From Tubulanus polymorphus (lineage: Eukaryota; Animalia; Nemertea), in contig NC_134027.1 in NCBI RefSeq assembly GCF_964204645.1, forward strand, positions 18,810,560 through 18,874,559: DNA of 64,000 nt, read 5' to 3'. A program made the position numbers and the translations under genes. Shown here in pieces: positions 6,357 to 56,038 of the stretch (positions are counted from its first letter, which is position 1; every line of letters starts with the position of its first letter). The notes beneath the pieces were generated by a model. The model ran no database searches. It was not told where the DNA came from and worked only from the letters and a program-made list of their open reading frames with translations.

Positions 6357-6437
6357 TGGATTGAATTCAAATGATGGGAGAAGACTGACTTTTTACAGAT
6401 AATTAGATGAAAATAAGGACGGAAAATATCAAGAAAA

Positions 6438-7003
6438 CTAGGGGTCCAGGGACACCATGCCCACTTGGGAAGTGGTTTCAAATGCTCAACAATCTAACAA
6501 TTTCAATTTTCAACGCCCCCTGGTGACCATATACAAAAACCAATGACCTTGAAACTCACCACAATCATAGAACATGTCAGCAGCTACGATTTTGTAATTG
6601 ACTGTGATAACAAAATATACCTTCTAACAAATTTAATAAGGAAATACTAAGTGAATCTACTATTCAACGCCCCCCTGGTGACCATATTCAAAACCCAACA
6701 ACCTTGCAACTCACCACAATCATTAAAAACCTTAAAAAGTTCCCTCAAAAATTTCAAAACGTGTAAAAAGTGATTTCGGTGAACAACAATGGCTGCCAGA
6801 GGGCCATCTTGATTCTGACAGGGGCTAGTTTTTGAGCTAAAGATGTGTCTAAGGTAGATACATGCATAAGCCAAATATCAAGACATTACCTAGAAGCATC
6901 TTCAAAACTTCCCAAAATAACTGGATTCCGTCTACGGACGACGGACGAAAAGTGAACACAATAGCCCAAGTCCCAAGTCCTAAAGTCCCAAGTGGGCTAA
7001 AAA
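6438..7003 (-). mobile_element. Helentron-associated (HINE/DINE-1/pearl-like) non-autonomous element, family 1 copy A
   Basis: Subterminal inverted repeats GCCCACTTGGGA (6459-6470) and TCCCAAGTGGGC (6986-6997); terminal GTCC/GGAC mini-hairpin; GGAC microsatellite; internal ~145-150 bp repeats (CAACGCCCCCTGGTGACCATAT...); A-run flanks. Confidence 0.75.
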
Positions 7004-7091
7004 TGGCTTTTTTCGAATTATGAATGGAAATGCATATGCCTACCTAAGTTTTTGGCAGAATTTCAGAGAATCCTTGCTCCAAGTAATCAAA

Positions 7092-8988
7092 CTAGGGTCC
7101 AGGGACACCATGCCCACTTGGAAAGTGGTTTCAAATGCTCAACAATCTAACAATTTCAATATTCAACGCCACCCGGTGACCATATACAAAAACCAATGAC
7201 CTTGAAACTCACTACATTTATAGAACATGTCAGCAGCTACGATTTTGTAATTGATTGTGATAACAAAATATGCCTCGCTACCAATTTAATATGGACATAC
7301 TAAGTTATTCTACAATTCAACGCCCCCTGGTGACCATATGCAAAACCCAATGACCTTGTAACTCACCACAATCATAGAACATGTCATGATCTACAACTTT
7401 GCAATTGATCATGGTAACAAAATATGCCTAGACGTATCGGCCCCACTCCGCGCGGTTGCGCCACCGCGCAGGATTTACGCGAAGCAGCAAACACAAACAT
7501 GGCCACTCTCTCAATTTTCAATGATAGAAATCGTGTGTGCATTTCAATTATTTCGGCTGTTAGGGTTTTAAGGCACAACATAAGTTGATGATGTGATATG
7601 GCAATGTTAATTAATGATAATTCCGCAGTGAAGCTAGTCACGAACGGTGCCGATTGAGTGTACAGCTGCCAAAAACACTGAAATGTGCGTAGTTGCGTAA
7701 CTATTTGCAGTGAATTGCAGACGAAACATGAAGCCTTAACGGCCATTTAAAAAAAAATTATACCAATCGCAATTGTAAAATAAAAATGAGATAGAACCTA
7801 ATTTAAAATTCTGGCCATTTCTAAAATGTTATTACTAATTCTTAGTCAGTGCCGAACGTTTAGTTTTCCAACAATAATGAGGGGTGGTAGGTAGTCATGC
7901 AATTCAAGTCATCATTTATTACATGTTACTTCCGTGCTGTTGAAAATCTCGCGAGTCCTGGACCAAACCCCATTGAACAATGTGATCTGTGTGCTGGCCA
8001 CAAATGCACACAGATCACACTACACTACCCATTACACACTCCAGTACCCACAGCTTTAATATATCCATCCAAATATTTAGAGTGTCTTTCTTCCTGGGTA
8101 CCACTATAATAAGGAAATACTACGTTATTCTACTATTCAAAGCCCCCTGGTGACCATATAGAATAACAAATGTCCTGAAAACTCACCACAATCATAGACA
8201 ATGTCATGAGCTACAATTTTGCAATTGATTGTGGTAACGAAATATGTATTGGTACAAATATAATATAGAAACACTAAGATATTGTATTATTCAACACCCC
8301 CTGGTGGCCATATACAAAAACAAATGACCTTGGAACTCACCACAATCATAAAACACGCTGTAAGCTACAACTTTCTAATTCATTGTGGTCACAAAACATG
8401 CTTAGGTATCAATATAATGTCGAAAAACTTTTTCCCACCTACGAATGAGTACTAACACCAAGATGGCCGCCAATTGCGTCATAATTGGCTGATCAAAAAT
8501 ACCTGTCTCAGGTATAAAACACCCCTTTCCAAAGAATAACCATTAGCAATTGCAATGAGAAATGGCAAACCAGTAGGAAGCTACAGGACTCAGAATTCGG
8601 GCCAAAATTAACATTTTAGGGCACTAAAAAGGTCCTAGGACGACCATCGTGAGTCCGATCGACCCAATTTTTGTTATGCTGATGGGCCCTGGGGGGTTCG
8701 AATATGAAGGAAAGGTCGAGGCGTCTGCAAAATTTCCCTCAAAAAGTTCAAAACGTGTAAAAAGTGCTGATTTTGGCGAACAACAATGGCTGCCAGTCGG
8801 CCATCTTGATTCTGACAGGGCCAGTTTTTGGGCTGAAGATGTGTCTAGGGTAGATACATGTATAAACCAAATATCACGACATTACCTTGAAGCGCCTTCA
8901 AAACTTCCCAAAATAACTGGATTCGGACGGACAGACAAAAAGTGAACGCAATAGCCCGCTGGAACTTAAGTCCCGAGTCGGCTAAAAA
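7092..8988 (-). mobile_element. HINE-like family 1 copy B
   Basis: Same end boxes as copy A, more core repeats, interrupted by the insertion at 7432-8097. Confidence 0.75.
7432..8097 (-). mobile_element. ~660 bp TIR-less mobile element, copy 1
   Basis: Splits the HINE core repeat GCCTAG|GTACCA; near-identical inverted copy at 17427-18080; GC hairpin GCGCGGT/ACCGCGC near the CTAG end. Confidence 0.85.
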
Positions 8989-9089
8989 TGGTCATTAAAT
9001 TTCTTTACAAACATGATTTCCTGAATTTTAAGGTTATTTTAGGGGCCTGTGGCATCAAAGCCAGAATTTTTGGGTATTTCTCCCCTAAA

Positions 9090-11153
9090 CAAGGGGTCCA
9101 GGGACACCATGCCCACTTGGGAAGTGGTTTCAGATGCTCAACAATCTAACAATTTCAGTATTCAATGCCCATCCAATGACCTTGAAAAAATCTAATGACC
9201 TTGAAACTCACCACAATCATAGTACATTTCAGCAGATACAATTTTGTAATTGATTGTGGTAAAAAATATATGCCTAGGTACCAATATGATATGGAAACAT
9301 GGAAAGTTATACTACCAGACCTGCCAACCTTGTGTCTGACTAAATCAGAACAATTTCATAAATTGTCAGTAATTTTTGAAGTTTTTCAGTAACAAGCATA
9401 CAATACTAAAACACTGTTATACTATTTAAATCATTTTATTAATCAACGAAAAAACAAAAGCGTCTCAGCCCGGATAGCGTCTATGTCAAGACCAGACGAT
9501 GCTGGAGTGAAAAAACGACTTATCTTACATGTTTTTGCGTTAGTCTTATGTTTTTTCATCTCCAAATGACGTTTTATGTCAGTTATACCGCCGTGCGCTA
9601 TCTATGTTTTATTCAAATTATAAGTCACACTAATTACAGCCGAGAACCGATGCGAATGGTTGGCGAAGGGAGATCGTGTTTGCAAATCTTTTATAATTTA
9701 ATTTGTTTATCATCGACCAAATAAATAAAGCAGAATCGTGAATTGATAGACGAATAAAATAACTTCAGTCGGGTTATTGCAAAAAATTCCGCGCTTGCAA
9801 GCAATGTTGATATATGTTACAACAGATGCGCTGTTGTGTTGTACTGTATAAATAGGCGCTAGCGCAGTATACGTTGCCACGGTGACAGCCGGCGCCAGGC
9901 GCGTGTATGTCGGCTCACACCAGCGGTCTGTGTACACAAACTGCTCGCGTGGCGTGCCGATAATTAGTGCCGCTTGAATTTTCCGTAGAACGTAATGAAA
10001 ATAAACTAAAATCGTAATTTTGAACACCCAATCGTAACATCGTAATTTGTAATGTCAATCCGTAACAATTACGGGAAAATCGTAACAGTTGGCAGGTCTG
10101 TACTACTATTCAACGCCCCCTGGTGACCATATGCGAAGCCCAATGACATTGACACTCACCATCATCATAGAACATGTCATAAACTACAACTTTGCAATTG
10201 ATCATGGTAACAAAATATGCCTAGGTACCAATGAAATAAGGAAATACTAAGTTATTCTACTATTCAACGCCCCCTAGTGACCATATAGAATAATTTATTT
10301 CCTTGAAACTTACCACAATCATAGACCATGTCATGAGCTACAACTTTCAAATTGATTGTAGTAGCAAAATATGCATAGATACGAATATAATATAGAAATA
10401 CTAAGTGATTGTATTGTTCAACGCCCCCTGGTGGCCATATACAAAAACCAATGGGCTTGAAACTCATCACGATCATAGAACATGTCATGAGCTACAACTT
10501 TGCAATTGATTGTGGTAACAAAATATGCTTAAGTATCAATATAATGTGGGAAAACCTTTTTCCACCTACGAGTGAGTTCTGATGACACCAACATGGCCGC
10601 CGATTGCCTCATAATTGCCTGATCAAAAATACCTGTCTCGGATTTAAAAGATCTCTTTCCAAAGAATACTCATCACAAATTGCAATGAGAAATGGCAAAC
10701 CAGTAGGAAACTACAGGACTCAGAATTCGGGCCAAAATTTACATTTTTGGGCACTAAAAAGGTCATAAGACGGCCATCTTGAGTGCGATCGACCCAATTT
10801 TCTCTTAAGGTGATGGGCCTTTGGGGGATTGAAATATATACGAAATATCAAGGTAATTGATTTAAGCGTCTTCAAAATTCCCTTCAAAAAGTTCAAAAAT
10901 GTGTAAAAAGTTTTGATTTTGGTGAACAAAGATGACTGCCAGTCGGCCATCTTGAATCTGACAGGGCCAGTTTTTGGGCTGAAGATGTGTCTAGGGTAGA
11001 AACATCTATGAACCAAATATCAAGATATTCCTTGAAGCGTCTTCAAAACTACTCAAAATAACTGGATTCCGTCTCCGGACAGACGGATGGACAGACGAAC
11101 GAAAAGTGAACGCAATAGCCCGCTGGGACTAAAGTCCCAAGTGGGTTAAAAAA
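9090..11153 (-). mobile_element. HINE-like family 1 copy C
   Basis: Same end boxes; (GGAC/AGAC)n at about 11077-11100; interrupted by 9316-10100. Confidence 0.75.
9316..10100. mobile_element. Non-autonomous hAT-like DNA transposon with 6-bp TSD
   Basis: Perfect 13-bp TIR CAGACCTGCCAAC / GTTGGCAGGTCTG; TACTAC duplicated at 9310-9315 and 10101-10106; subterminal CGTAA repeats. Confidence 0.88.
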
Positions 11154-11488
11154 GGAATCCCAAAATTTTAGGGTATTTTAGGGGCTGTAGGAACCATGAC
11201 TTTGATAACAGATGTTTGCCCTGGTGCCGATCTATTTGTCCGACTTCATTCTGACTGCTGCTGCAGCTGGTAACTGGCAGCCAGTGAACGGTATCTCGAT
11301 ATGACAACACCGCCCGATTCAACGAACTACTCTCCCAATTAGAGAGGACCCAGTTTTAGTCGTTGTTTAGGACCCGATTCAACTACTGCCAGGCCTGGTT
11401 CCTCTCAACGGTATGCTACAGGTTAAACTCATAAACTTATCGTCAGGCCCTGTTGTGTTGATCGAAGTTGTCTCTTTTGCACCGTGGA

Positions 11489-22489: not shown

Positions 22490-24540
22490 GCCTATATTGA
22501 TTCAATTTCTACGAGTTCTGTTGTAAATCCATACGATTTCAGTTCGTTGCGTAGCTTTTATGTTTCTGTTAGAAATTCCCTCATCACATTGAAACAAATG
22601 AATTATATGTCAGAAATTTGGAGCAGTGATTTGTTATTTTAAGTTACTAGGCGTATCCCAGTTGATAAACGTTCTAAATGGAATGATTTTGTACGTCGAA
22701 TTTCTAGAACTACTTATCCCACTCTATTTGATTTCAAGATTCTGTCGAGGCAGATTTTGGACCATTCTCGTTGCAAAATAAACCTAGGAAATCTAGTAAT
22801 CCTGTGAATGTCGTTAATGGTCCACGGAGACCACATGTATTTAATTCCAGAGCATGAACCTATAAAATGTATCGTTTGTTCGGATAGCCATTCTTTGAAT
22901 AATTGCAAGGCTTATCAAGATAAGTCTGTCATTGATCGATTCACAATTGTGAAAAAAGTATCGTTTATGTATCAATTGTTTGAAAACAGGTCATTTTCTT
23001 GCTGCCTGTGCTTTGCTATACGGTGCAGAGAGGCAGCTTGCGGAAAATGCACCATACCGTGTTACATCTTCCGTCCTAGAGTAGTCAGATTCCAAATAGA
23101 TCCATGTTGAATATTCCGTCGTCTGATAAATCGCGTCAAAATTAGTCCTTAGAACGTGGTGATTCTGCAATTATCCAAAATGCAATTTCAACTGAAACTT
23201 ATTGTAACAATGTGTTTTTCAGGTGTTGCCGGTCACAGTTCAGGGAAAAAAAATGGACGTCGTATTGCCACACATGCTTTGTTAGACTTCGGTAGCGATG
23301 TTACCTTAATTCATGAAGATTTGGCTGATGAGCTTGGGTTACCAGGTGAAAAACAATTATTTACAACAAGTACCCTCAATTTTAGTGTTGCACGTATATC
23401 TAGGTGTGTTACTTTTGCCGTTCGTGGCAATGATCCAGATTCGAAAGATGTTAACATTTCGCGAGCCTAGACTACTCATAACAATATAAATTGTCCCGCT
23501 CAGACGTTTTCTGAGGTTTTTCTCAATAATCTATCACATTTGAATGGTTTGTCCTTTACGGACTATTCGCCTTGTCAGGTTAAGATTCTAATTGGTGCAA
23601 ATGTGCCTCAAGTGCACGTCCAATTAGAGGTTAGGGAAGGCACCTCCCAGCAGCCTGCAGCAATAAAAACCAGACTCGGTTGGTGTTTGTTTGGACTTTA
23701 GATTTTAGCGAGTTACCAATTGAACGTACTTTAGGAATTAAGTGGAATGCTCAACAGATTGATTGTTTCGTTTATAGACCGGCAATTAAACCTGTCACAC
23801 CTACCAAGCGAGGGATTTTAAGCGCTGTATGTTCTGTGTTTGATCCTTTGGGATTTTTATCTCCATTTACGCTAAAGGCTAAATGTTTGATTCAGAATAT
23901 GTGGCATTGTGGTTTAGGTTAGGATAAAAAGATATCCGGTGATCTTTTTGAAACTTGATGCGCGTGGGCAAGACGAGTTGCTATTATTATACGATTTGAG
24001 AATCGCTCGACATCATTTGTTCTTGTCGCCTTCTGCCGAAACGTAGCAGCTAAATCTGTTCTGTGATGCATCGGAACGAGCATTCGGCTGTGTTTGGTTA
24101 TTTGTGTTATAACACGGGTGAGCTTTTTTCCTGTTCATTTCTTGCTTCTAAAACGCATCTTGCTCCCGTTAAACATCCTTGAGATCCGTGATGTTGTTTA
24201 TTGGACCGATTCTCAGACTGTTATACGGTATATATACAATGAAAAGAAGCGTTTAAAGACATTTGTTGCGAATCGTGTGAGCAAAATTCGTGAAAATTCA
24301 TCACCTAAGCAGTGGAAGTACGTTTCTTCAAATTCAAATCCCGCTGATGATTGTGCCCGCGGACTTTCTGCGGCCACCTTAACATCATCTCATAGATGGT
24401 TCAATGGCCCAGAATTTCTGCAACTAGCTGAAACTAGTTGGTCACCTGAACCTAATGTTGGTTCTATATCTTATCTAGATGAACATATAAAAGTTGCAAC
24501 AACCGTGAATCGAACTTTAGGGTCTTTTGACTGTGAGGCC
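22490..24540 (+). pseudogene. Heavily decayed BEL/Pao gag-PR-RH fragment
   Basis: CIVCSDSH knuckle, protease ALLDFGSD, FDPLGFLSP, WTDSQ, NPADD; most of RT deleted near 23700; resembles the outer BEL at 44772-56869. Confidence 0.85.
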
Positions 24541-25144
24541 GCTATTGATCTCAACGATCTATATGGACGACTTCCTCAAATCAGTCAAGATAGTTCTTGA
24601 AGCCATAGGGATGTTGTCACAGGTCTCTTCTACAGTTACCGTTGGCGGTTTTCGGCTTACGAAATATTTCAGCAATAGCCGTGAAGTCCTTGCTGCGATG
24701 GCTCCATCTGATGTTGCCATTGATGTCCAGAAGTTACCCGACGGTCAATTACCTAAAGAGCGAGTGCTGGGCGTACTATGGGACGCTGAAAATGATGTTA
24801 TTGGTATAATAGTTCGTGTGTTCGATGCTGCGTTGACGCGACGAATTCTACTGCGATTGGTATCTTCGATTTTCGATCCATTTGGTATCGCCGCACCGTT
24901 TCTTCTCCAAGCCAAGATACTCATTCAACTATCTTGGACTCGAAAGCTTGATTGGGATGCTGACTTACCTGGAAGAAGATGTACGTGATTGGAAGTTATG
25001 GTTAGATGTTTTAAAGTCGTTACCAGATGTTCACATTGTCCGTTGCTACAAGCCAACGGAAGATGAACCCGGTCGCCGCGAACTTCACCTGTTTTGTAAT
25101 GCGTCTACAAAGGCCTTTGGTGCAGTCGCATACTTCCGTTTAGT
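24541..25144 (+). pseudogene. Second BEL/Pao fragment (RT C-terminus to RNase H), left part
   Basis: IYMDDFL, RVLGVLWD, FDPFG, LHLFCNAS; frame continues at 36067 once the Gypsy insertion is removed (AYFRLV|MPDGD). Confidence 0.88.
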
Positions 25145-25762
25145 TGTCACTAACGGGATCTTTGAATTCCACTTGAGTGATAGAATGTTAACAAGCGTCC
25201 ACGAATAAACGAGTCGCAACACACAGAGTTCCTGTCTTCAAAATTACTTTTATTTCACGAACTGATCTCAACGATCTAAAAATTCCTAGCGGTCTCCCCC
25301 ACGGTCCAAAAACCCCAGTATATATAGTCAATTCTCCAACCCATCTCATTAGCGAACGACATTGCCAAAGCCCGTTAATTTGTCGTTAGCGCAACAGCGT
25401 TGCCCATAAAAATATCATTATTCAACCGAAATAATTACAAAAGGACATTATACGTGACAGTTTCCCATAAAAATGTAACATTAACTTTGAATTATGTTCT
25501 TCAGCGGCAGTCGTTGCTCGCAAAAGCAAATACTTACGAGCAACTGACGCGCATTAGTCGTAATTTTCCTAAGGTTCAATCTCAGTACAAAAAGTTATAT
25601 GAAAGCTGACGCTGGAACAAAGTTCGAAAGTTTTATCACGAAAGATGGCACTGTTGAATGAGTTGGATAATGAATGCGGAATAGTTTATGATATCGTTAG
25701 AAGATGGCAGCACTGCCTATGAATTGAGACTGCTGTTGAAACTCAACAATACCACTGTCACA
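25145..25762 (-). repeat. Gypsy-env 3' LTR
   Basis: Minus strand TGTGACAG...GTGACA; TATATATA at ~25319-25326 and AATAAA at ~25249-25254 on the minus strand. Confidence 0.97.
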
Positions 25763-25766
25763 TATA

Positions 25767-25776
25767 CCCCCCTTCC
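25767..25776 (-). promoter_or_regulatory. Gypsy-env polypurine tract
   Basis: Minus strand GGAAGGGGGG-TATA just before the 3' LTR. Confidence 0.88.
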
Positions 25777-26920
25777 GCAAAGGCCCTGTCCTCAGGGACT
25801 AGAATTGGATAATACAAATACAAGTCAAATGTTAAGTAAAAAATGACATAAGGTCATCATGATATGAGACAGGAAAAAAATTTCCATTCATCGATACAAC
25901 TACAACACCATTATGTAAAACATTAACATCCGATAATAATGGTTGCTTGGATACAGAGTCATAAATCTTGACTAATGGCCCTTAAGAGTAGCAAAGCATC
26001 ATACCGGCGCGCAACGGCAGATACAGCATACGCCATGGATTACAAGCGACCAACACAACCGTACAAACGGTAAGTAATTATTTTCTTATACATTATACTT
26101 ATATGTTTAAAATGAACAATATCTATAAGAATATAAGATGAAATCCACAATCCATGTGCATAATATATAATAGTAGGTATCATTATACGAAAATAGGTGA
26201 ACACAGCACACTATACCAAGACATTAAACACATCACAAAGAATGTTTGTTTGTTTTTTTTTTTTAACACATATACGTTATACACCTACATCATTATATAT
26301 CGTAAATACCAATAACCATACATGATTATAAGAGACACTATCAATTAGATATCTAATACAAGCCATTAAATGTAAACATTACAGATATAACTTCATAATC
26401 ACTACCATATCACACGCACATCCTCAAACATCAATTTAATTCCATTACAATAATCACACTACAATTTACGTACATACGTAACTTTTAATCTAAAAGCAGC
26501 CTACATCAGAGTCACGTAAGAGGTTACTAGCACATTACGTGAAGGCCGAACGGGTCATCCGCACCCAGCCTCTCAAAACACTTCTGCACCGCAAGAGCTC
26601 TGATGCTGCCTAAACGCTCGCCTAGATAAATACAATATTCAACATATAATATCATTTCATATTCCACTACAATTTATTCACTCAAGTAAAATACGCAGGC
26701 CTGACCTACACTATTACAAACATACAATCGAAATCGAGTACTCATTGCGCCTCTTCATTATAATATGCCTCTTACTATGACAAATATATTTATTTATCAT
26801 CCTTTATAATCCATTTCATATCATCGTCTAATTATCGAAACAATACATATAGACATTATCGCCTATATCGAAATCATCCCCCCTCCCAAAAATGTACGGA
26901 ATGAACCTCTCTACAACATC

Positions 26921-29632
26921 TTAAGGTCTTGATAACAACGAGGGGTACAGTAAATTGATGCCCCTCTGGGGTACCAATGGATTCGGAACACTCGGTGGCG
27001 AAGGAACCCGCGGGGATATAGCCGGAATGTTTCTATTAGTGGCTGCTTCGTGAGCCGCAATCTCGGCCTCCCAATCAGAATCATTGTTTCTGCGGAGCCT
27101 TCCGAGGCACCGTTCCTTTTTCACGGCCGGATCCCTCAGGAAATCCGCAATGCCTTTGACTGGAATCCTCGCTCCATTAAATTCAATCCAAAAAAACTGG
27201 CAAAAATCCTCCGCTAGGATCCTCCTTACAGAACTAAATTTAAGCCAAGGAATTGTGACCTTCGAAGGCAAATCCATCACCTTCTGGCCATCCACTATAA
27301 CCTCACTGTACATCGAAAATCTAAGTAATAGCGAAAAAGGACCATACAACCCCACTATTTCTGGATCTGGCAACATAAGACAAGAATATTCTATCTCTGT
27401 CGGATGATATGGACAATCGCCCAACGGTATCATAATCGACTCATTAACATTACAGATCTCTAAATAAATAACACAATGTAAATCAGAACGGTCAACACTA
27501 CTCCACGGAGAGCAACATCTCAGGATCGCGCGAATCAACCGAACGATATCCATGATCAAGACCCGTAAGACTAGAAAGGAACCCAAAACAAATATAACTT
27601 CCAACATGGGAATATCTGAAAGGTCAAATCGTTCGGTCACTACTTTAACTAAAACCGTTTCGTTGGCACCCCTATCAAGAGAATCCAGCGTTAGTTCATA
27701 CGATTTATTTGAAACAACGGTAAATGCCTTCGCTAGAGGCATGGCAGATGCCACCGCCATCATCCCCAAAACCTTCCTGGTTTTAATGAAGATAAAAAAA
27801 CACAATAGCATGCTAGCCGAAGACAGAGCGATGGCCACTATATTTAAGACACCTGGTGTATCGGAAATTGTCCATTCGAAGTCTTCGCGAGACTCGTCTG
27901 ACTTAGCGGCCAAAGCATCCGCCTTCGATGCATACATAGCGGTGTCATTCTTAATGTGATATACCATCCGTTTAAAATCCAAAGAAAACTTCTTATCTTT
28001 ATCAACTAGACCGGACCAGTTAGCCATGTTTAACTTAAAATGAGGGAGTTCCGTTTTTATAGGATCTGTAACCGTAGTGCCCCCAAAAATATTATCTAGC
28101 TGTTCCCGGTTATAAATTTGTGATACCACCGGAAGATTCATGCTATAATATTTTACAGGTGCGACATCACCCGCACAAGCCGTAATTCGTGGGCTAAGTT
28201 CAAAAGTATTAGACGTTAATCGGCACTTGCACGGCACTGATAACAAACAAAACAAACAACTTTTAATTGCTTGGACTGGTTTCCCTGGACAGGTTAAATC
28301 CCATGTCGCTGGCTTTCCCGACATCAAGTATAAACTGTCTTTGACCTGCACTGCGCCTTCGAACAACGCAGACGTCGGCTCGTATCTGATATCACACAAT
28401 TGCGATACCAACTTAGGCTCGTCCCTATAAATCGCCAATGCACAACTGGGAATATTTCGCGACTTCATCGACATCGCAGTCGAACAAGATTTCAGATATT
28501 TTCCTGAGCAAGATGAATAGAATTTGGACGAAAGCTCAGTATAAAACTGGCCATCGTCAGTTATACCAAAATAATCAGGTAACCCAGTTAACAACGTACT
28601 GCGAGTCGACGAGGAATTGCAAGGTACAGGAAAAGCCATCACGTTGTATAAGCCGAAGAAGGCGTTGGTCGAGGATAATGGGATATTAATTGTTATATAC
28701 AAATTATTGTCTGTCTTAGTGAATACAATATCTTGGGCCTGATAATAAAACCCTAACTCGTTATGCTGGATGGTGAAACCAACAAATTTGGCCTGTAACT
28801 CCTCTCGCACGTGTTGCAAAACCCTTTTTAAATCTTTTGGGGATACAAACTTCATGGGTAGATAGCCCTCTAAAACAGTCTGAGTTGCCAAAAGCCATTG
28901 TTGTGTGGTACGTGTTAAATCTATCATGGACTGATAGTCAAACATTAATTGTTTGATAACTAGTAAAATTAATCTATTGTAATAATTTTGGTTTTGAAAA
29001 TTAGACGCAACATCTTTCGCCAACTGGTCCATATTTCTAGAGTTATTCTTTACCCCAGCGACGACGTTGGTTATGCGAGCATCCGCAGATGACATGTACG
29101 AAGTCAGGTCGTCTGAAATCGTTTTTATTTGTTTCGTATTTAGCTTAGCCATATTTTCCACGTCAGTGATGTGCTTCGAAAGCTTTGCGAGATCCTCATC
29201 GGTCGCTAAGCCAAAGAGGTTTTTCATGAACTTTCCCATAAACGGGGCTAAAGCTCTCTTCGGGCGTCTCGACTTGGTTATCTCGGCTTTAGTTATAGTT
29301 ACCGGAATGAGATCTTTAATCGTATTAATATCTTTGACTATCTGACCAACCAATTCATTATGGTGATCCCTCATAGATGACATCAAATTGGAACCGACCT
29401 TACACATTTCATCCCCGCCTTTATGAAAATCACAGTCCGGAATTACGGCCTTATATTTCGGCACTTGCAAAAAGGGGACTACAAAGGTGTGCTTCCACGC
29501 ACTCGCACCATTGTCCACCACACCGATTTTTTGAAGTAACACGCCATATCCTGGGCGTATTACGGTGTCGGTCGCTAACGATCCCTGGATAAGAATCATA
29601 ACTAGTGTGGTCCCTGAAAAAGTACAGGACAC
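26921..29632 (-). CDS. env: Envelope glycoprotein, F-type class I fusogen, with long C-terminal extension (903 aa)
   Basis: N-terminal signal-like segment; furin site RRPKR126 then ALAPFMGKFMKNLFGLATDEDL, matching the errantivirus-Env/baculovirus-F pattern R-x2-R-x6-G-x3-K-x3-G-x2-[D/T]-x2-D; heptad region; Cys-rich region; TM at about aa 594-616. Confidence 0.9.
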   Translation of the reverse strand: MSCTFSGTTLVMILIQGSLATDTVIRPGYGVLLQKIGVVDNGASAWKHTFVVPFLQVPKYKAVIPDCDFHKGGDEMCKVGSNLMSSMRDHHNELVGQIVKDINTIKDLIPVTITKAEITKSRRPKRALAPFMGKFMKNLFGLATDEDLAKLSKHITDVENMAKLNTKQIKTISDDLTSYMSSADARITNVVAGVKNNSRNMDQLAKDVASNFQNQNYYNRLILLVIKQLMFDYQSMIDLTRTTQQWLLATQTVLEGYLPMKFVSPKDLKRVLQHVREELQAKFVGFTIQHNELGFYYQAQDIVFTKTDNNLYITINIPLSSTNAFFGLYNVMAFPVPCNSSSTRSTLLTGLPDYFGITDDGQFYTELSSKFYSSCSGKYLKSCSTAMSMKSRNIPSCALAIYRDEPKLVSQLCDIRYEPTSALFEGAVQVKDSLYLMSGKPATWDLTCPGKPVQAIKSCLFCLLSVPCKCRLTSNTFELSPRITACAGDVAPVKYYSMNLPVVSQIYNREQLDNIFGGTTVTDPIKTELPHFKLNMANWSGLVDKDKKFSLDFKRMVYHIKNDTAMYASKADALAAKSDESREDFEWTISDTPGVLNIVAIALSSASMLLCFFIFIKTRKVLGMMAVASAMPLAKAFTVVSNKSYELTLDSLDRGANETVLVKVVTERFDLSDIPMLEVIFVLGSFLVLRVLIMDIVRLIRAILRCCSPWSSVDRSDLHCVIYLEICNVNESIMIPLGDCPYHPTEIEYSCLMLPDPEIVGLYGPFSLLLRFSMYSEVIVDGQKVMDLPSKVTIPWLKFSSVRRILAEDFCQFFWIEFNGARIPVKGIADFLRDPAVKKERCLGRLRRNNDSDWEAEIAAHEAATNRNIPAISPRVPSPPSVPNPLVPQRGINLLYPSLLSRP

Positions 29633-29663
29633 ATGATGAGTACAACGTGCTTAGAAATTGGAA

Positions 29664-32600
29664 CTACTTCCGTCGTTTGTCCTTTCCTTGCTTCCGAAAT
29701 ATCTCCAAGGGCGTTTTATCAATAAAACTATCTTCGAATTCCCATGTGCAATCCTTCATGCCATAACCCTTCCATTTGACTAGAAATTGTTCATTGCCCC
29801 CTTTGTTAAAACGCGATTTCAAGATCTTTTCTACCGTATAGATATCATCTTCATCTTCCAAATTATCCCCGGAATCATCAGAATCGGATTGACCCCTCTC
29901 ATCCGCTTCGGGGTCAGGTAACGATTCGTTCTTATCTGATGGTAAATCGACTGGTCTGTCCCTTGGGTCTACGTATAACTTCATTCGATTACAGTGAACT
30001 ATTTTCGGAATATCATTACTCTTTCTCGTATGAACGAGTTTATAATTCACTGGCGAAGTCTGCTGTAATATCTTATAAGGTCCCAAATAGTGGTGCACGA
30101 ATTTCTTACAATGTCCTTTCGGGACGAAAGGGTTGTAAAGCCAAACTAATTGACCGACTTGAAAATCCGGTTCCTTACTACCCCGATCATAATAGCCTTT
30201 CATACGCGCTTGCGCTTTTTCGATATTCTGTCTAGCTATCTCATGAACGACCTTGATCTTGCTCACAACATTATCATAATATTCTTTATAGGAACCTGTC
30301 AAATCGGGTGTAGTAGAGAGCAAGGTCACATCGATCGGCAAAACTGCCTTCCTGCCATAAATCAATTCAAACGGCGAATATCCAGTGGATTCGCAAATAG
30401 ACGCGTTATGAGCAAACGTGATGCTTGGAAGGAAATCTGGCCAATCTCTATGATGTTTATCCGTATATTGAGACAGACTGTTGCAAATATTTTTGTTGCC
30501 TCGCTCAACTAAACCATCCGCTTGGGGATGATATGCAGACGTTCTGATTTTAGACGCGTTGCATAATTTGCATAATTCGTGTATCAATTTCGCGTTGAAA
30601 TTCGCACCTTGATCTGTTAATAAAGTTTTAAAACACGAATGTACGCAAACTATTTTATCAAATATGACTCGAGCGATTGTGATAGCGTCGATTTCTTTTA
30701 ATGCAAATGTGTGTGTCCATTTGGTTAAATATTCAGTACACACTAATATATACTGGTACCCTTCGTATGATTTCTTCAAGGGCCCTAATATATCCATAGC
30801 TATTCTATCAAACGGTCCACCTACTTTGATGGGAATCAATGGCGCTTTAGCTGATTTTGGAGGTTTCTTCCTCGTAGCACAATCTTCACAACTTTTAACC
30901 CAATAATCTATGTCTTTATACATACTATTCCAAAAGTATCTCTGTCTCGCTTTATGCAAGGTACGTGAAATGCCAAAATGCCCACTCAGTGTATCGTCGT
31001 GTAGCGCATAAAGTATTTCTGATCTTAATGGTTTCGGAATTACTAATTGATGACAGACGTTCGCCCCATTTACCCATAAATGATGCAGAACACCGTTTTC
31101 ATCCAGATAGTAATCTGGACTAGATATAACGATCTTTCTAGCATATTTATCGACCTCTGGTAGTTCTTCCTTTAATAAATAATTAATCATCGGACGCAAA
31201 TCATCATCTTCCATTTGCATCTGTAAAAGTTCCTCTGGTTGTAAGGTTATATTCTCATCTATAGTGCCCTTAGGGTCTACCCCATCTCTTTGAGGTATCT
31301 CCTCATTACCACCATCAGTATCATGTTCCTGAGTATTAGGAATATTTTTAGGAGTCTCTAAAGCATAGAGACCACTAGTTCCTAGTTGTAGGTTCATTCC
31401 GTTCATTCCATTGCGTGTATTATATTTCCCCTGTACATTTTCATTAATCCCTATTTCAGTTTCATTTATCTCTTCTTCATTTTTATTTATCCCCATGGGG
31501 TACAAGGTGTCTGTGTCACGTCCAGCGTTGACCACAGCCTTGCAATCATTTTCATTGGAGCTATTACTCCTTAATATATCCTCAGCGCTTAATTCATTAT
31601 TATTATTAGTTATCATTACGCGTGCGTCATCGCGCGCGTTATAGGCATCAGGAGGCGATTCAAAAGATAAGGAAAAACCCTTATTGTTAATATCAATAAT
31701 ATCATCTACACATCCACACTGAAAATCACAAGTACAAGTTTTACAATCATTTGTTTTTTCATTCATTTTACCACCAATTTCAATTTGAAACGGATATCCA
31801 TCCTCGTTACTACCAATAATTGTTGGGATTGAATATACCGGTCTCGACAAAGCGTCTGCATTTAAATGTTTCTTCCCCGCTCTATGAACAATATCAAAAT
31901 CATACTGAGACAATTTCATTGCCCAGCGAGCTAAACGACCGTTCGGATCTTTCATAGTCATTAGCCATTTCAAGGCACTATGATCCGTAACTACTTCAAA
32001 TTTCTGGCCATACAAATAGGGCTCGTATTTCTTTACACCATAAACTACCGCTAAACATTCTTTCTCACTGACAGTATAGTTTTGTTCGGCTTTATTGAAT
32101 AATCGAGTCCCATAGCATATAACTCGCTCTGGGTCTTTTCCTTGAGAAAGAACGAATCCAACGCTATAATTGCTAGCGTCAGTGTATAATATGAATTTTT
32201 CATTGAAATTTGGATATGCTAAGACTGGAGCTGTAGTCAAAATTTGTTTGCATTTTTCGAATGCCTGTTGACATTCCTCGGTCCAATTAAAAGGTTTACC
32301 CTTCTGAGTTAAAGCCGTGAGAGGTCTGATTATTTCGGAGAAACCCTTCACAAAAGCCCGATAATAGGACACAAGCCCAACAAAACTACGTATCTGTTTA
32401 ACTGTTTTAGGGGCTTTGTAGTTGACAACAGCCGAAATTTTTTCGGGGTCAACCTTAACACCTTCCGGTGTAACAATATGACCTAAGAATTTCAATTCTT
32501 TCTTCCCAAATTCGCATTTTCTAGACTTCAGCCTTAAGCCAGCCTGTCTAAGTCTTTCGAAAATTTGCCTTAAGTTATCCAAATGATTTTGCCAACTGGA

Positions 32601-34211
32601 GCCAAAACATATTATGTCATCTAAATATACAAGACATATATCGTACGTTAGTCTGTGTAAAACCCTTGACATTAATCTAGAAAATACTGCAGGGCTAATA
32701 CTACATCCCATAGGTAGAACAGTATACCGATATAAACCACGCGGTGTTATGAAACTAGTATAATCCCGACTCTGAGGATCAATTTCGATCTGATGAAAAC
32801 CCGAGAAAAGATCTAAACTGCTATAAATAACCGGCTTTTTCTGACCTAACTTACTCAACAATGAATCAATTAATGGAAGTGGATAATGATCTTTACGCAT
32901 TCGAGAATTCAAGGCTCTAAAATCTACAACGAACCGATATGTAGAGTCCTTCTTCTTAACCAGAATACAAGGACTACTCCATTCGGACGATGATTCTTCA
33001 ATCAATTTCATTTCCATCATGTCGTCTAATTGTTTTTCTAATTCCGTTTCTAAAACAGGAGCCAATCGATAGGGTCGTGATTTAATTGGTGGCCCTTCAA
33101 TTTCAATTTTTGGTGTAATTAGATTTGTACGGCCAATTTCTCGAATATTATTAGCAAAAACGTCCCTGAATTCCATGCATAAATTCATTAACTCAATTTT
33201 CTGTACATCAGTTAAATCTGAATCTTCTAAATCGATATCAGGACTACCCGGTAATTCATCAGCGGATAAAAACGGTTTAGCGGTCTGTTTAATTTCCAAA
33301 CCATTCACTGTTACAATTTGATTCGACGAATCTACTTTCGATTCCCCATTATTTCCGCTACATATATCAAAAGCAGGTTTTCCTTTATCACCAAATTGTG
33401 GCAAGAAAAATGCTAATTTTTGATCCGAATGAATAATTATATCATCATCAGTGCAATTCAACACGAGCATCGGTACTGTATTAGCCGTTACTGTGCATAA
33501 TGATTTACCAACCAATAATTGATCATGGTATTTGTGCAATAAACCAGGATATCCCTCTATCATTCCAGTGGTTCCGTCTGGAAGTGATTCACATAATTTA
33601 ACCGGTAGAATAACTTGTGATAATTTTGGAATAGATAAATCAGTCATTACTTTCAATTTTACAGCACCACACATATTATGGATTCCGTTTATAGCAACCG
33701 AAGTCTCACCCTTTATGAAAATTCGTTTGTCTTCAAAACTAATCAAAACTTTATATTTTTCCAGAAAATCTACACCTAAGATAATATCTTGAACCAATCC
33801 TGGAACCACATAGAATTCGTGAGAAAATGGTTTCCCGGAGACCTCGATCGTTAATTCTACAATACCGGCCAAGCGAAATGAATCACCCTTGACAGTGTGC
33901 GCATTTGCATATTTTCCTGGAATTAGCGAAGGCTTTTCATTCAATGAATCATACAGTGATTGGCTAATACAACTAACACACGCGCCAGTATCAACAAGGA
34001 AACTGGTGGAATTACCATGAATCTTTCCAGGAACTGCTAATGCAACAGTTGCTAAAATTGGAATAGAATTAATAGTCTGATCGTTTGTACTGGAAGTAAA
34101 GCCTGGAAATATTTCGTTCTTTATCAGTTTACTCTTACCACAATGAGATGGGGATTTAATTTCTAATGGCTCGGAATCATCCCCTAAAATCCGGGCCTGG
34201 GGTTGTTTCCC
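29664..34211 (-). CDS. pol: Pol polyprotein PR-RT-RNaseH-IN-chromodomain, reached by -1 frameshift
   Basis: Frame is open upstream of the ORF-track start and includes protease FLVDTGA (~33990); RT YLDD; RH TDAS; IN H-H-C-C, DILGP, TDQG, VER, GPY; C-terminal YTVEKIL...FLVKWKGY...TWE. Confidence 0.96.
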   Translation of the reverse strand, partial: GKQPQARILGDDSEPLEIKSPSHCGKSKLIKNEIFPGFTSSTNDQTINSIPILATVALAVPGKIHGNSTSFLVDTGACVSCISQSLYDSLNEKPSLIPGKYANAHTVKGDSFRLAGIVELTIEVSGKPFSHEFYVVPGLVQDIILGVDFLEKYKVLISFEDKRIFIKGETSVAINGIHNMCGAVKLKVMTDLSIPKLSQVILPVKLCESLPDGTTGMIEGYPGLLHKYHDQLLVGKSLCTVTANTVPMLVLNCTDDDIIIHSDQKLAFFLPQFGDKGKPAFDICSGNNGESKVDSSNQIVTVNGLEIKQTAKPFLSADELPGSPDIDLEDSDLTDVQKIELMNLCMEFRDVFANNIREIGRTNLITPKIEIEGPPIKSRPYRLAPVLETELEKQLDDMMEMKLIEESSSEWSSPCILVKKKDSTYRFVVDFRALNSRMRKDHYPLPLIDSLLSKLGQKKPVIYSSLDLFSGFHQIEIDPQSRDYTSFITPRGLYRYTVLPMGCSISPAVFSRLMSRVLHRLTYDICLVYLDDIICFGSSWQNHLDNLRQIFERLRQAGLRLKSRKCEFGKKELKFLGHIVTPEGVKVDPEKISAVVNYKAPKTVKQIRSFVGLVSYYRAFVKGFSEIIRPLTALTQKGKPFNWTEECQQAFEKCKQILTTAPVLAYPNFNEKFILYTDASNYSVGFVLSQGKDPERVICYGTRLFNKAEQNYTVSEKECLAVVYGVKKYEPYLYGQKFEVVTDHSALKWLMTMKDPNGRLARWAMKLSQYDFDIVHRAGKKHLNADALSRPVYSIPTIIGSNEDGYPFQIEIGGKMNEKTNDCKTCTCDFQCGCVDDIIDINNKGFSLSFESPPDAYNARDDARVMITNNNNELSAEDILRSNSSNENDCKAVVNAGRDTDTLYPMGINKNEEEINETEIGINENVQGKYNTRNGMNGMNLQLGTSGLYALETPKNIPNTQEHDTDGGNEEIPQRDGVDPKGTIDENITLQPEELLQMQMEDDDLRPMINYLLKEELPEVDKYARKIVISSPDYYLDENGVLHHLWVNGANVCHQLVIPKPLRSEILYALHDDTLSGHFGISRTLHKARQRYFWNSMYKDIDYWVKSCEDCATRKKPPKSAKAPLIPIKVGGPFDRIAMDILGPLKKSYEGYQYILVCTEYLTKWTHTFALKEIDAITIARVIFDKIVCVHSCFKTLLTDQGANFNAKLIHELCKLCNASKIRTSAYHPQADGLVERGNKNICNSLSQYTDKHHRDWPDFLPSITFAHNASICESTGYSPFELIYGRKAVLPIDVTLLSTTPDLTGSYKEYYDNVVSKIKVVHEIARQNIEKAQARMKGYYDRGSKEPDFQVGQLVWLYNPFVPKGHCKKFVHHYLGPYKILQQTSPVNYKLVHTRKSNDIPKIVHCNRMKLYVDPRDRPVDLPSDKNESLPDPEADERGQSDSDDSGDNLEDEDDIYTVEKILKSRFNKGGNEQFLVKWKGYGMKDCTWEFEDSFIDKTPLEIFRKQGKDKRRK

Positions 34212-35149
34212 GGCCTGAATCTATTAGGATTGTCGTTGGAACGATTACCGAAATTATTGTTAGAATTATTAAACCGTCTATCCGGCCGATAACTACCGTT
34301 CTGCCTAAAACAATTACGTTCGTGATGCCCAACTCGATTGCATCTACCACAAACTACAGATCCGGAAGCAGATCTGAAATTTCGTGGCGGCAGGTTATTA
34401 TCCTGCCTCCGGACCTGTACCTGAAGTCTCGAGACTTCCCGGCTCAAATTCCTGATTTCATCCCTGAGATCCGAAATTTCATTTCGGTTCTCAGTGGATG
34501 ATATGATGCCGGCAATTGGAGGCGGTTTCGCCTGCAGCGCCAACACGGATTCATACAAGCGCGCGTATTGTTCGGCTTCGTCCATAGTTGTTGGTGATCT
34601 AGATACGACAAACGCTCTCAAATTGTCCGCCAAGCCATTGATAAATAGGACCATTAAATCATGATCGTTCTTTTCAAGAGCCGCCGAACGTATTTGGATG
34701 TCTTGAAGATAGACGTCCAACGATTCCCCCGGTAATTGTTTTCTGTTCATTAAACTTTGCTCACGCACCCATTTCATTGATCCAGAATCGAATTTCTTTT
34801 TGAATTCCCTTTCAAAGTTGTCAATATCTGATAAGATACTATTCGCCGTTGTCTTAACGGTTGCGTCTTTTGACTTGCTTGCCTCGACCACGGTCCAATA
34901 CCAAGCCGAAGCAAGTCCATCTAAAAACAGCCCCACTGCTTTAAGTTTCTTTTCGTTGGTCCAGCCCATGAAAGTAGAATATTGGGTGAACCGCCGCCAC
35001 CAAATATTAGCGTCTTCGCTTACCGTACCGGTAAACTGTGGCGGTTGTAGACGAGTCATGCCCATTGGCTTATCGTCAATTTTGGCTGTCATTTCAGCTA
35101 GTCTATCTGCCAATGCGCGGTCCATTCCAGACCTCGTTTCGACCGGCAT
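34184..35149 (-). CDS. gag: Gag (capsid plus one CCHC knuckle), about 321 aa
   Basis: First ATG at 35149 (MPVETRS); PPQFTG capsid start; MHR-like KQLPGESLDVY; CGRCNRVGHHERNC. Confidence 0.93.
   Translation of the reverse strand: MPVETRSGMDRALADRLAEMTAKIDDKPMGMTRLQPPQFTGTVSEDANIWWRRFTQYSTFMGWTNEKKLKAVGLFLDGLASAWYWTVVEASKSKDATVKTTANSILSDIDNFEREFKKKFDSGSMKWVREQSLMNRKQLPGESLDVYLQDIQIRSAALEKNDHDLMVLFINGLADNLRAFVVSRSPTTMDEAEQYARLYESVLALQAKPPPIAGIISSTENRNEISDLRDEIRNLSREVSRLQVQVRRQDNNLPPRNFRSASGSVVCGRCNRVGHHERNCFRQNGSYRPDRRFNNSNNNFGNRSNDNPNRFRPGNNPRPGF
34205..34211 (-). promoter_or_regulatory. -1 ribosomal frameshift slippery site G GGA AAC
   Basis: XXXYYYZ heptamer in the gag frame inside the ~36-nt gag/pol overlap; pol is in the -1 frame; GC stem starts 7 nt downstream. 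Confidence 0.88.
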
Positions 35150-35420
35150 ACACAAATTCAATCAAATAATTTCTAGGTTCTTCAATATTAAGTCAATTAA
35201 ATGTACGATAGACCGAAGGAGACAGCAAAATATTCGGTCTATCCACAGAAAATTGTTCTACGCACACGACGAAATCAAAATTAAATAACAAGTATTGTTC
35301 AATATTTACCAAAATCCATTTTCCGTGCGTTTTCTCGAGTTCCTACTTCCTGTGTTGTTCCAGCGAATTATCTTTGTTTCCGTTGGTTTGTTAAATAGCT
35401 CGATACCTCACTCAAGTAAA

Positions 35421-35442
35421 ATGCCCGCCAGGTTCTCCACCA
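35421..35442 (-). promoter_or_regulatory. Primer-binding site, tRNA-Ala(AGC)-like, bulged
   Basis: Minus strand TGGTGGAGAA-CCTG-GCGGGCAT versus the recalled tRNA-Ala complement TGGTGGAGAA-T-GCGGGCAT; 2 nt after the LTR. Confidence 0.75.
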
Positions 35443-35444
35443 TT

Positions 35445-36062
35445 TGTCACTAACGGGATCTTTGAATTCCACTTGAGTGATAGAATGTTAACAAGCGTCC
35501 ACGAATAAACGAGTCGCAACACACAGAGTTCCTGTCTTCAAAATTACTTTTATTTCACGAACTGATCTCAACGATCTAAAAATTCCTAGCGGTCTCCCCC
35601 ACGGTCCAAAAACCCCAGTATATATAGTCAATTCTCCAACCCATCTCATTAGCGAACGACATTGCCAAAGCCCGTTAATTTGTCGTTAGCGCAACAGCGT
35701 TGCCCATAAAAATATCATTATTCAACCGAAATAATTACAAAAGGACATTATACGTGACAGTTTCCCATAAAAATGTAACATTAACTTTGAATTATGTTCT
35801 TCAGCGGCAGTCGTTGCTCGCAAAAGCAAATACTTACGAGCAACTGACGCGCATTAGTCGTAATTTTCCTAAGGTTCAATCTCAGTACAAAAAGTTATAT
35901 GAAAGCTGACGCTGGAACAAAGTTCGAAAGTTTTATCACGAAAGATGGCACTGTTGAATGAGTTGGATAATGAATGCGGAATAGTTTATGATATCGTTAG
36001 AAGATGGCAGCACTGCCTATGAATTGAGACTGCTGTTGAAACTCAACAATACCACTGTCACA
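35445..36062 (-). repeat. Gypsy-env 5' LTR
   Basis: Identical by eye to 25145-25762, offset exactly 10300. Confidence 0.97.
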
Positions 36063-45286: not shown

Positions 45287-45538
45287 GCGCCCCCTTGACA
45301 TCTCAAACTTCAAAAGATTAATTTTTGTGTACACACAGACCGCAATTAAGTTGCAGTTATAAACTAGAATAATATTTTACATCATACGAATGCTATAAAC
45401 CATCGTTCAATATCGACAAATCGAGAAAATCACGCTTTAACACTACGTATTTTAGTTTTCACGACCTTAATTTAACTAGCAGCAAGATAACACACAAATA
45501 TTTACATTACCACTAGATATAATCACAACTCTGACTCC

Positions 45539-48500
45539 TCAAGAAGACAAACATTGGCTATTGGCTACTGGACGAACATATTCGCCCTTTCGAGTTTTAA
45601 TTTTGACGGTCCTCACCCCATCCTCATGCGGATAAACCTCCAATATACGGGCAAGGGGCCATTTACCACGGGGCAAATTCTCGTCGATGAGAACTACAAC
45701 GTCACCGATACGAAGATTTCTTACCTCAATTTTCTGACGCTTATTTAGAGTTTGCAAATACTCCTTGGTCCATCCCTTCCAGAAATGGTCAGCTTTTACC
45801 TGAGCCTGCCGCCATTTTTGACGACTATTAACGACAGAAGAACTTACCTCTGCTGGAGGGTTCACACTAACAGCGCCCCCGTAGAGGAAATGACTGGGCG
45901 TAATTGCTTTAAAATCGTTTGGGTCTGAACTACTGTACGTTAAAGGGCGACTGTTGACCGCAGCCTCGACCTCGATTAGATAAGTACGCAAGACACTATC
46001 TTTCACTACCTGACCTTTTAAACAGGACTTAAGGGCGTGTTTAGTACTTCTTACCAACCTTTCCCATACTCCTCCAAAGTGTGGGGCCTGGGGAGGGGAA
46101 AATTGCCAATGCACGTTCCTCTGCAACGAAAAGTTATGTACCTTCCCCTGATTCCAACGAGTTATAGCATCCCGTAATTCTCTTTCCGCACCTACAAATT
46201 TGTGCCGTTATCACTATATATATGCTGCGGCTGTCCCCTACGACCAATAGAATTTCTTAACACCAGAATGAAGTCATCGGTTTCCAAGGATTCAGCCAGC
46301 TCTAAATGAACAGCTCTGGTGACCAAGCAGGTGAACAAACATCCCCATCGCGTTAAACGACAACGTCCTTGCTTAATCTCTATAGGAACGAAATAATCAC
46401 AACCAGTAAAACAACAAGGCTGAGTGTAACCGGAAACCCTGGACGAAGGAAGATCAGACATCATCGGAACCTCAGGCCACAAATAATAAAGACGACAATC
46501 AGAACAGAGCCTACGCGTACTATATGCCATAGAACGCGCTTTAATGGGCCAATATTTTTGACGAACCTCCGATATTATCTGCTCCGGACCACAATGAGCA
46601 TTACAATCGTGAATACTTCTAAGGATAAGACGTGTCACATGATGTCCAAAGGGCAGAAGATTCTGATGTTTTGCCTCAAACGGCAATTGAGCCTTTGACA
46701 AGCGTCCTCCAACTCTCAGAAATGAACCATCGCTAAACGGGGCTAACGATTGAATTGTACTCATCTTAGACACTACAAACCCTGATGCCAAACACGCAAT
46801 TTCATCTGGAAATTTCTCAGACTGGGCAAACTTAACTAGACAGTCTTCTGCTTGATGGACCTCGGAAGGAAGCAAAAACTCACTAGGACAAACTTTGGGA
46901 AACTGCAATCGACTTCCTGCAAATTTACGAACAGCTCGTAGTATCCCAGCAACATGACACTTTAGTTTTATCCAGCAAGAAAACCGATTAACATCGATAA
47001 GACCGGTAAGATCTAAGTCACTTACGACCAATTTCCGTACGACATCCACATTGTTCACACACTTTGTCCTGCGAACATTCACGTCATCCTCTGAAATAGA
47101 CCCTGAAACACCAAGTTGATCAGGCCACATGGATTTATCTTTCAAGAATGCAGGACCAGAGAGCCAAAAATCCGAATTACAAACCTTCTAGGCCGACATT
47201 CCACGGGTACAAGGATCTGCTGGATTCAGATTTGTGAGAACAAACTGCCATTGATCAGGTGATGTGCAACTATGGATCTCCGACGGACGATTGGCCACGA
47301 AAACTTTAAACCGGGTTGTAAAGTTGTTGATATACCGTAGGACCGTCATAGAATCAGTCCAAAACATGACTCGAGAAATATGCAACGAGCTGAGCTCCCT
47401 TGTCAATGTTTGGTACGGACGAACAGAGAGGACAGCTACCTCCAGTTCCAACTTAGGGATAGTTAACCTCTGCCGAAACGCCACCAGAGAAGAACATGAA
47501 CCTCCGGAACCAAACGAACCACGTAAATAGCATGCGGTAGCAAAACCACTTTCTGACGCATCCGAAAAGAAATGAAGCTTCACACACTGGGGGTGAAATA
47601 CTAACGCAGGATGATACCTAGGAACTTTAAATTCACGAAGAAACTCCAGGTCAGATAACCAGTCGGTCCATTTCGACAATAAATCATCACTTAATTCATC
47701 ATCCCAATCCAAACCAAATTTCCAAACATCCTGCATCAAAGTTTTTGCGCGAAAAGTGAAAGGAGCGAGAAACCCGATTGGATCAAAGATGGAACTAACC
47801 GACCTAATCACACAATGCTTTGTGGGGGGTCCCTCCTTGTTAAACGATTTGAATACGAAACTATCACGTTCACTCCACGTTCCATCGAACTCCTAGGGCC
47901 CGCTCGACGGGTAAGTTATCCAAGTCCAAATAGGTTTAGCACGTTTCGCCTTGTAAATCCTAGACAAAACCTCCCTCACATTACTCATCATCTACATAAA
48001 AATCATTTAAGATGCTATCTGTACATAAAGACGAACAAAAATCCTGACTATCGATAGCTGACCGTTGCAGGGCATAATGGGCGATACAAGGGGAATCGGC
48101 CGCTCCAAAAATAGAGTCGGGTTCAGAATCCTGAGTCAAATCATCCTGCCACAAAAACCTCCTCAAAGAATCTGAATCATCCTCTGGGACCCGTACCTGA
48201 TGAAACATGACCTCAATATCAGATACCATGGCGACCGAGTTTAAACGAAAACGCTGTAAAACTCCAAACAAACTGTTGAGTAAATCAGGACCGGTCATCA
48301 ACATGCTATTTAAGGAAACACCCTTACATTTGGATGCAGCATCAAAGAGTACACGGGGCTTAGGCTTGTTTGGGTTAATAACGCAATGATGTGGAAGATA
48401 CCAAGTCCTATTAGAAGTACGAGTAACCTCATCAGGCGTCAAATTTCGAGCAAACCCATTCGAAATATAACCATTCATGGTATCGCAATACCCAGACATA

Positions 48501-50735: not shown

Positions 50736-51013
50736 TGGGTTGACGGACTTGTATTCCCTCGGTTCCTGACGAAAGCAACTCAACAAACACACGTTCGAAC
50801 TATATGGCATTTCCATTTATTACTCCCCAAAATCTCAAATTCACATGATATGATATGTAACCATGAAACTAGTACAGTGAAGATTATATATAGCTGACGC
50901 GACACGTGACAACTTGTATTCATAAGATATTCACGATACAACATGGACATAATACATCAATACTAACAGTACTGTATTTGAGTTTAACAAATCAAGTATA
51001 TTTACAAACAGTT

Positions 51014-55938: not shown

Positions 55939-56038
55939 GTTGACAAATTTCAATTTTCTGAATTCTTCGAATTTGTTGAATTAACTCTTCGTCTTCTTCT
56001 AACGTTTAACGATTAACTGGTAGCATTTCTCACTTCTC

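Follow-up and report, generated by a model that had tools for sequence, protein, structure and literature searches.

An LTR retrotransposon in the genome of Tubulanus polymorphus carries an env frame that runs past the membrane anchor of its F-type fusogen into a second module. This post-anchor module is real, conserved and apparently undescribed. It is probably a separate product, predicted to be cut free from the fusogen by signal peptidase and likely to act as a membrane-anchored, ESCRT-recruiting matrix protein. The analysis started from a window of 64,000 nucleotides, to which all coordinates refer.

The element and its env frame

The element lies on the minus strand between a 5′ LTR (35445..36062) and a 3′ LTR (25145..25762), both of 618 bp (TGTGAC...GTGACA) and exactly identical. 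Sequence inspection revealed a 4-bp target-site duplication on both sides. A putative primer-binding site (35434..35443, minus strand) begins with TGG, 2 nt after the 5′ LTR. The gag gene (34184..35150, minus strand) gave a Pfam match to Retrotrans_gag (E 4e-5), with the capsid starting ~30 aa past the Met and a zinc-knuckle-like motif close to the end. The start of pol (29664..34220, minus strand) overlaps the end of gag in another frame. From Pfam, Pol has a protease, a weak dUTPase-like stretch, a reverse transcriptase (RT; RVT_1, 7e-35), an RNase H, an integrase and a chromodomain (Chromo, 5e-13). The dUTPase-like stretch occupies Pol aa 189-270, in the interval between protease and RT, and its Pfam score was below the cut-off (E 0.0015).

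Gag, Pol with its C-terminal chromodomain and the F-type Env were all recognized as open frames in the Pfam scan. The element thus has the LTRs, the gag and the PR-RT-RH-IN order of pol found in Ty3/gypsy errantiviruses, and its third ORF is F-homologous, with a furin site, a fusion peptide and a TM. The identical LTRs, a contig of run X2 that joins both flanks without the element, and a second copy with 99.25% identity (contig C8) indicate that the insertion is young. Judged by its sequence, the element is a young, intact chromodomain Ty3/gypsy with an F-type env. Its 3′ untranslated region (25763..26920, minus strand) is AT-rich, ends in a polypurine tract and is unusually long (~1.15 kb from env to the tract); it could possibly hold an export or packaging element. 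The element is nested in a decayed BEL/Pao-like element (window 22800-25144 and 36063 onward), and further remnants of BEL/Pao and gypsy elements, also decayed, were seen at 45500-56000 and 61100-61900; these labels are presumptive, based on motifs. A ~154-bp repeat family, 60-90% alike, forms several clusters at 6400-11200.

The env frame (26921-29650, minus strand) has 909 aa from stop to stop. Residues are numbered here from the Met at 29599, which gives values 11 lower than those of the first-pass annotation of this DNA. A splice acceptor (pyrimidine tract plus CAG) likely lies just upstream of this Met, and inspection of the region around the start of gag gave no canonical splice donor. 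The ectodomain (27842..29650) is an F-type class I fusogen, with matches to Baculo_F (Pfam, E 4.6e-15) and, by profile, to the solved “fusion protein” 9w4d (E 2.6e-17). It has a furin-type RPKR (29255-29266), followed by a fusion-peptide-like stretch.

The fusogen anchor, TM1 (27785..27841, aa 587-605), was recognized by hydropathy, as was TM2 (27551..27607, aa 665-683), using the Kyte-Doolittle and Hessa scales. Between them lie a signal-peptide-like segment (27725..27784, aa 606-625) and a predicted luminal linker (27608..27724, aa 626-664) with the sequons NKS 631 and NET 646. The segment starts with the basic KTRK (606-609), continues with a hydrophobic core of ~8 residues and a polar end, and has A-K-A at -3/-1. 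TM2 is followed by a basic, Cys-containing stretch (27485-27550; RCC at 694-696), a conserved beta-rich domain of 111 aa (27152..27484, aa 706-816), which is predicted cytosolic and resembles the Mononegavirales matrix fold, and a low-complexity tail of 76 aa (26924..27151, aa 817-892). The tail carries a basic patch, PSPP (26993-27004, aa 866-869) and LYPSL (26936-26950, aa 884-888).

All the features that the first-pass annotation had listed after TM1 were found in this minus-strand frame. The “~190-aa domain” described there exists as a region, but really consists of the ~111-aa folded domain (706-816) plus the 76-aa low-complexity tail. A second genomic copy is identical across 289 aa of the post-anchor read-through, and therefore the read-through is not an assembly slip.

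Conservation and predicted topology of the module

In a full HMMER scan, 2285 proteins matched with E<=0.001, and the best 150 of these were analysed. The domain was held by 91 of the best 150 of 2285 (E<1e-5), counted with a profile that was itself made from the long-tailed rows. In 22 of the remaining 59 the protein stops cleanly, on basic residues, just past TM1; four are long without a clear domain, and the others are apparently fragments. Only two of the 20 representatives looked up are named, both molluscan (Pinctada and Littorina). Several other env families in the same T. polymorphus genome have the same layout. The 97-row statistics given below combine 90 representatives, the window protein and six env frames of this genome. 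Many F-type env families with open frames of 800-900 aa are present in the genome, and several of them exist as near-identical copies; some of the frames stop right after the domain, without a late motif.

The first-pass annotation had named conservation among homologues as a test of its reading. The homologues keep the extension, the A-x-A site and TM2, and about a third have YPxL/V/I; every computational test named there by which that reading could have failed favoured it. From these sequence comparisons, the post-anchor module is a widespread trait of a non-insect F-type Env family, and not special to one element.

In a FastTree ectodomain tree (119 rows, midpoint rooting, no outgroup), the 22 short-tailed proteins grouped in a single clade (support 0.996), nested among the proteins that bear the extension. 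Because the tree has no outgroup, it just suggests that this clade arose by module loss. Late motifs were scattered across many clades. The short-tailed clade (P0036, P0063, P0091 and 19 others) has F proteins of 676-788 aa, mostly with a longer N-terminus, and two of its members are on contigs of ~42 kb. A separate matrix ORF may be present near the short-tailed F genes.

A short-tailed homologue as query found no relatives among the metagenome contigs, and in the T. polymorphus genome it matched long-type env frames only. The search of viral contigs gave no relatives and there was no phage match. A search of the T. polymorphus genome for an env of gB/Monjiviricetes type was likewise negative, with a control that matched nowhere either. 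Word-indexed homology searching gave no match with residues 560-892 and one already known protein each with the domain and full-length profiles. The ESM Atlas returned no usable match for the extension and, with the domain of a homologue as query, a single weak row (0.75). A short C-x3-C-x2-C cluster immediately following the domain, possibly a zinc site or an acylation patch, was seen in P0023, P0028, P0031, P0037, P0072, P0084, P0105, P0108, P0116, P0129, P0137, P0138, P0140 and P0147. Upstream of one env-bearing element there is a 202-aa frame (L067:318-923) that resembles a polinton-type gene.

With respect to cleavage, K/R directly follow TM1 in 85/101 rows. The aligned -1 column has Ala in 66/97, Ser in 16/97 and Gly in 6/97, and the -3/-1 rule of signal peptidase holds at the aligned site in 80/97, vs 7.6% elsewhere in the region. 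Half of the signal-like segments are exactly 20 residues long, and an alignment-free count peaked at offset 20 (35/97; next highest 22). The mean profile of the segment shows a basic start, eight hydrophobic residues and a polar end, so that the n/h/c structure of an internal signal is present together with small residues at -3/-1. A signal-peptidase site is predicted after A625.

With respect to topology, the K/R count per 15 residues averages 3.3 after TM2 vs 0.6 before; more K/R follow TM2 than precede it in 91/97 rows, equal numbers in six and fewer in none. From this bias we infer a luminal linker and a cytosolic position for domain and tail. The linker has a median of 32 aa, is S/T/P-rich and is net acidic in 73/97, and a Cys is found at or after the end of TM2 in 56/97. 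The two sequons pointed out in the first-pass annotation were confirmed, and near relatives have them too (L011), but over the 97 rows linker sequons are at chance (30 seen vs 29.9 expected). They therefore add nothing beyond the near relatives, and N-glycans were discarded as a family-wide argument that the linker is luminal.

Predicted matrix-like fold and late-domain motifs

The AlphaFold2 model of the domain (706-816) had a pLDDT of 85. Its best structural matches, by VIA-align and Foldseek, were Mononegavirales matrix proteins, in line with the “matrix” guess of the earlier annotation. The match was replicated with the model of a homologue at 15% identity, and five matrix families, mutually <40% identical, held the top ranks for both models. 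The matches of these predicted models span 90-105 of ~111 residues, with an identity of 6-18%. Modelling thus predicts for the domain a twisted beta-sandwich such as that found in bornavirus M, filovirus VP40 and paramyxo/pneumovirus M. Pfam had no family for it in the 12 isolated domains scanned, and no sequence homology to matrix proteins was detected, the profile matching just an unrelated PDB sequence (E 1.2). Foldseek searching of the PDB returned mostly HIV-protease rows (TM score about 0.2), which were rejected as noise. The net charge of the domain is positive in 85/97 and -6 in the window's own. The domain is in frame with F and behind TM2, and is not a soluble peripheral product of its own gene; its function may resemble that of M, but it differs from a standard M protein.

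In BFVD, the top matches of both domain models were long glycoproteins from viruses related to chuviruses, Aliusviridae among them (A0A7U3NVC9, A0A455LK50, A0A0B5KT86, A0A1L3KMZ8 and others). The named viruses are assigned here to Aliusviridae and are not known to have a separate M gene. In the text of Viro3D, Aliusviridae glycoproteins are among the unusually long class-I fusogens (PMC12583693). The BFVD matches, together with this unusual length, raise the prospect that the long glycoproteins of aliusviruses and chu-related viruses may contain an unrecognized matrix domain, in the same F-plus-matrix fusion.

In the tails, YPxL was present in 28/97 (shuffle mean 0.83, maximum 5 in 1000), P[ST]AP in 14/97 (0.3 in shuffles) and PPxY in 7/97 (0.95 in shuffles). 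These are three known late-domain classes, as described in the text of PMC8402826. Counting YPx[LVI], 42/97 tails have any late motif and 55/97 have none. In the homologous tails, no pattern of the same form is commoner than YPxL and no 4-mer commoner than PSAP, and PSAP lies <=12 residues before YP in seven tails, vs 0.01 expected. The YPxL motif is located in an exposed stretch, inferred to be cytosolic, and is conserved beyond chance, as for a YPx(n)L late domain. A motif scan of the element's Gag found no YPxL, P[ST]AP or PPxY, and of nine related Gag frames (from 12 related stretches) a single one carries PPxY, located within its capsid region. BRO1-domain genes were found at three host loci.

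Two alternatives accept the cytosolic position of the domain. If no cleavage took place, Env would be a three-pass protein with the matrix-like domain as a permanent cytosolic tail, much as the Gn tail of bunyaviruses stands in for a matrix protein. The signal-like segment begins just four residues past TM1, and nine homologues have an 11-12-residue version of it, both compatible with an uncut protein; however, a core of ~8 residues followed by a polar stretch is too short for a stable helix, and the small -1/-3 residues in most rows have no obvious reason to persist uncut, which makes this reading improbable. It is likewise unlikely, though slightly less so, that the module is cleaved and cytosolic but is an unrelated beta-sandwich, a trafficking or accessory factor with motifs for sorting to endosomes or exosomes and not for capsid budding. 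The agreement of five divergent matrix families on both models argues against an unrelated fold. Against sorting, the enrichment is specific to the proline-containing YPx(L/I/V), co-occurring with PSAP, and YxxPhi without proline is not enriched (3 vs 14), so that a generic YxxPhi or dileucine sorting signal was not supported.

A third alternative reverses the topology: the segment after TM1 would be cytosolic and amphipathic, TM2 would cross outward and the domain would be a second luminal or surface domain. In the window's protein, the domain is acidic, with several Cys and one sequon (NES), as might be expected in the lumen. On the other hand, K/R dominate after TM2 in nearly all rows (91/97) and the residues ahead of it are acidic, motifs of the late type could serve no purpose on the luminal side, and domain sequons are near chance over the family (83 vs 72.7), leaving this topology very improbable.

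Proposed budding route and comparison with known systems

The anchored, cleaved matrix-like product is the reading we favour, from the observed layout, conservation and motif enrichment and from the predicted cleavage, topology and fold. The fusogen would be anchored by TM1, and segment 606-625 would re-enter the ER as an internal signal, cut after A625, in accordance with the -3/-1 and positive-inside rules. By the latter rule, TM2 would leave domain and tail in the cytosol, and the second product would be a small type I membrane protein whose cytosolic part has a matrix-like domain and a tail that recruits ESCRT. By analogy with established late-domain biology, LYPxL would bind ALIX and, in relatives, P[ST]AP would bind TSG101 and PPxY NEDD4-type ligases. 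The domain may line the inner membrane face and link the capsid to the fusogen-bearing membrane, and the polyprotein would give fusogen and matrix in a fixed 1:1 synthesis. The module would thereby supply budding functions missing from Gag, which is without late motif and without a matrix-sized N-terminus. Considering the matrix-like fold and the budding-type motifs, the elements likely wrap themselves in membrane like Borna, Ebola and measles viruses, and not like retroviruses.

How a Ty3/gypsy capsid, with a Gag lacking the retroviral matrix and late domain, gets its envelope is a gap in the errantivirus model. The module, present in most of the closest F-type Envs sampled, is a concrete, testable answer to it. 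A full-text literature search, covering mostly open-access journals and, for PMC13524379 and Viro3D, passages of the main text, found no description of a matrix-like or late-domain module in retrotransposon Env or chu-related glycoproteins. A true Mononegavirales matrix fold would be the first in a retroelement, as far as this search reaches. A link of the module to the matrix proteins of negative-strand RNA viruses is plausible from the models; if the fold is truly the matrix fold, the origins of M and F would be connected, and the very long glycoproteins of some chu-related viruses might be accounted for.

A wider reading has four parts, which we hold jointly and tentatively, as possible more than probable. 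Ancient env-bearing Ty3/gypsy elements would carry an F plus an anchored matrix, released by signal peptidase and homologous to Ebola VP40 and Borna M. The same F-plus-matrix polyprotein would survive in aliusviruses, matrix fold and F having been exchanged or inherited together before the Cambrian between negative-strand RNA viruses and retroelements. The elements would bud by a matrix-driven route wholly separate from the Gag-driven budding of retroviruses. Free M genes may have arisen later, by the splitting of such an F-plus-matrix precursor.

In the envelope polyproteins of alphaviruses, flaviviruses and bunyaviruses, an anchor is followed by an internal signal, at which signal peptidase frees the membrane protein that comes next. 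In those viruses the freed product is in most cases another luminal glycoprotein, whereas here its bulk is predicted cytosolic. Retroviral Gag, with MA and late domains (YPXL of EIAV p9, HIV p6), has the same three motif classes (text of PMC8402826), but in retroviruses matrix and late domains are in Gag, whereas here they are in the env frame and Gag is without late motifs.

Mononegavirales M proteins (single-domain Borna M, filovirus VP40, paramyxo- and pneumovirus M) are the best structural matches (compared with the text of PMC3887258), and most domains of the env family, though not the window's own, are basic like theirs. VP40 and rhabdovirus M have their late motifs in an unstructured arm, as here (text of PMC8402826). 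Mononegavirales M is a soluble product of its own gene, whereas the env domain sits on a TM helix inside a glycoprotein precursor.

Insect errantivirus Env-F and baculovirus F share the homologous ectodomain (Baculo_F), and the env is likely expressed from spliced RNA; the text of PMC12992720 describes a signal peptide, an ectodomain, one TM and a cytoplasmic tail, and mentions no second membrane protein. Closest by description are the chromodomain-bearing “ancient errantiviruses” with F-type env from Cnidaria, Mollusca and Annelida (Chary and Hayashi, PMC13524379). The element matches their description: it shares the gag-pol-env order, the furin site and fusion peptide in an F-type env, the chromodomain after the integrase and the young, multi-copy insertions. 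In that study Env is trimmed to the ectodomain between signal peptide and TM, and its main text does not contain the terms “matrix”, “ESCRT”, “budding”, “tail”, “polyprotein”, “cytoplasmic” or “late domain”. The post-anchor module is thus absent from the main-text description of these elements and sets the Env reported here apart from it.
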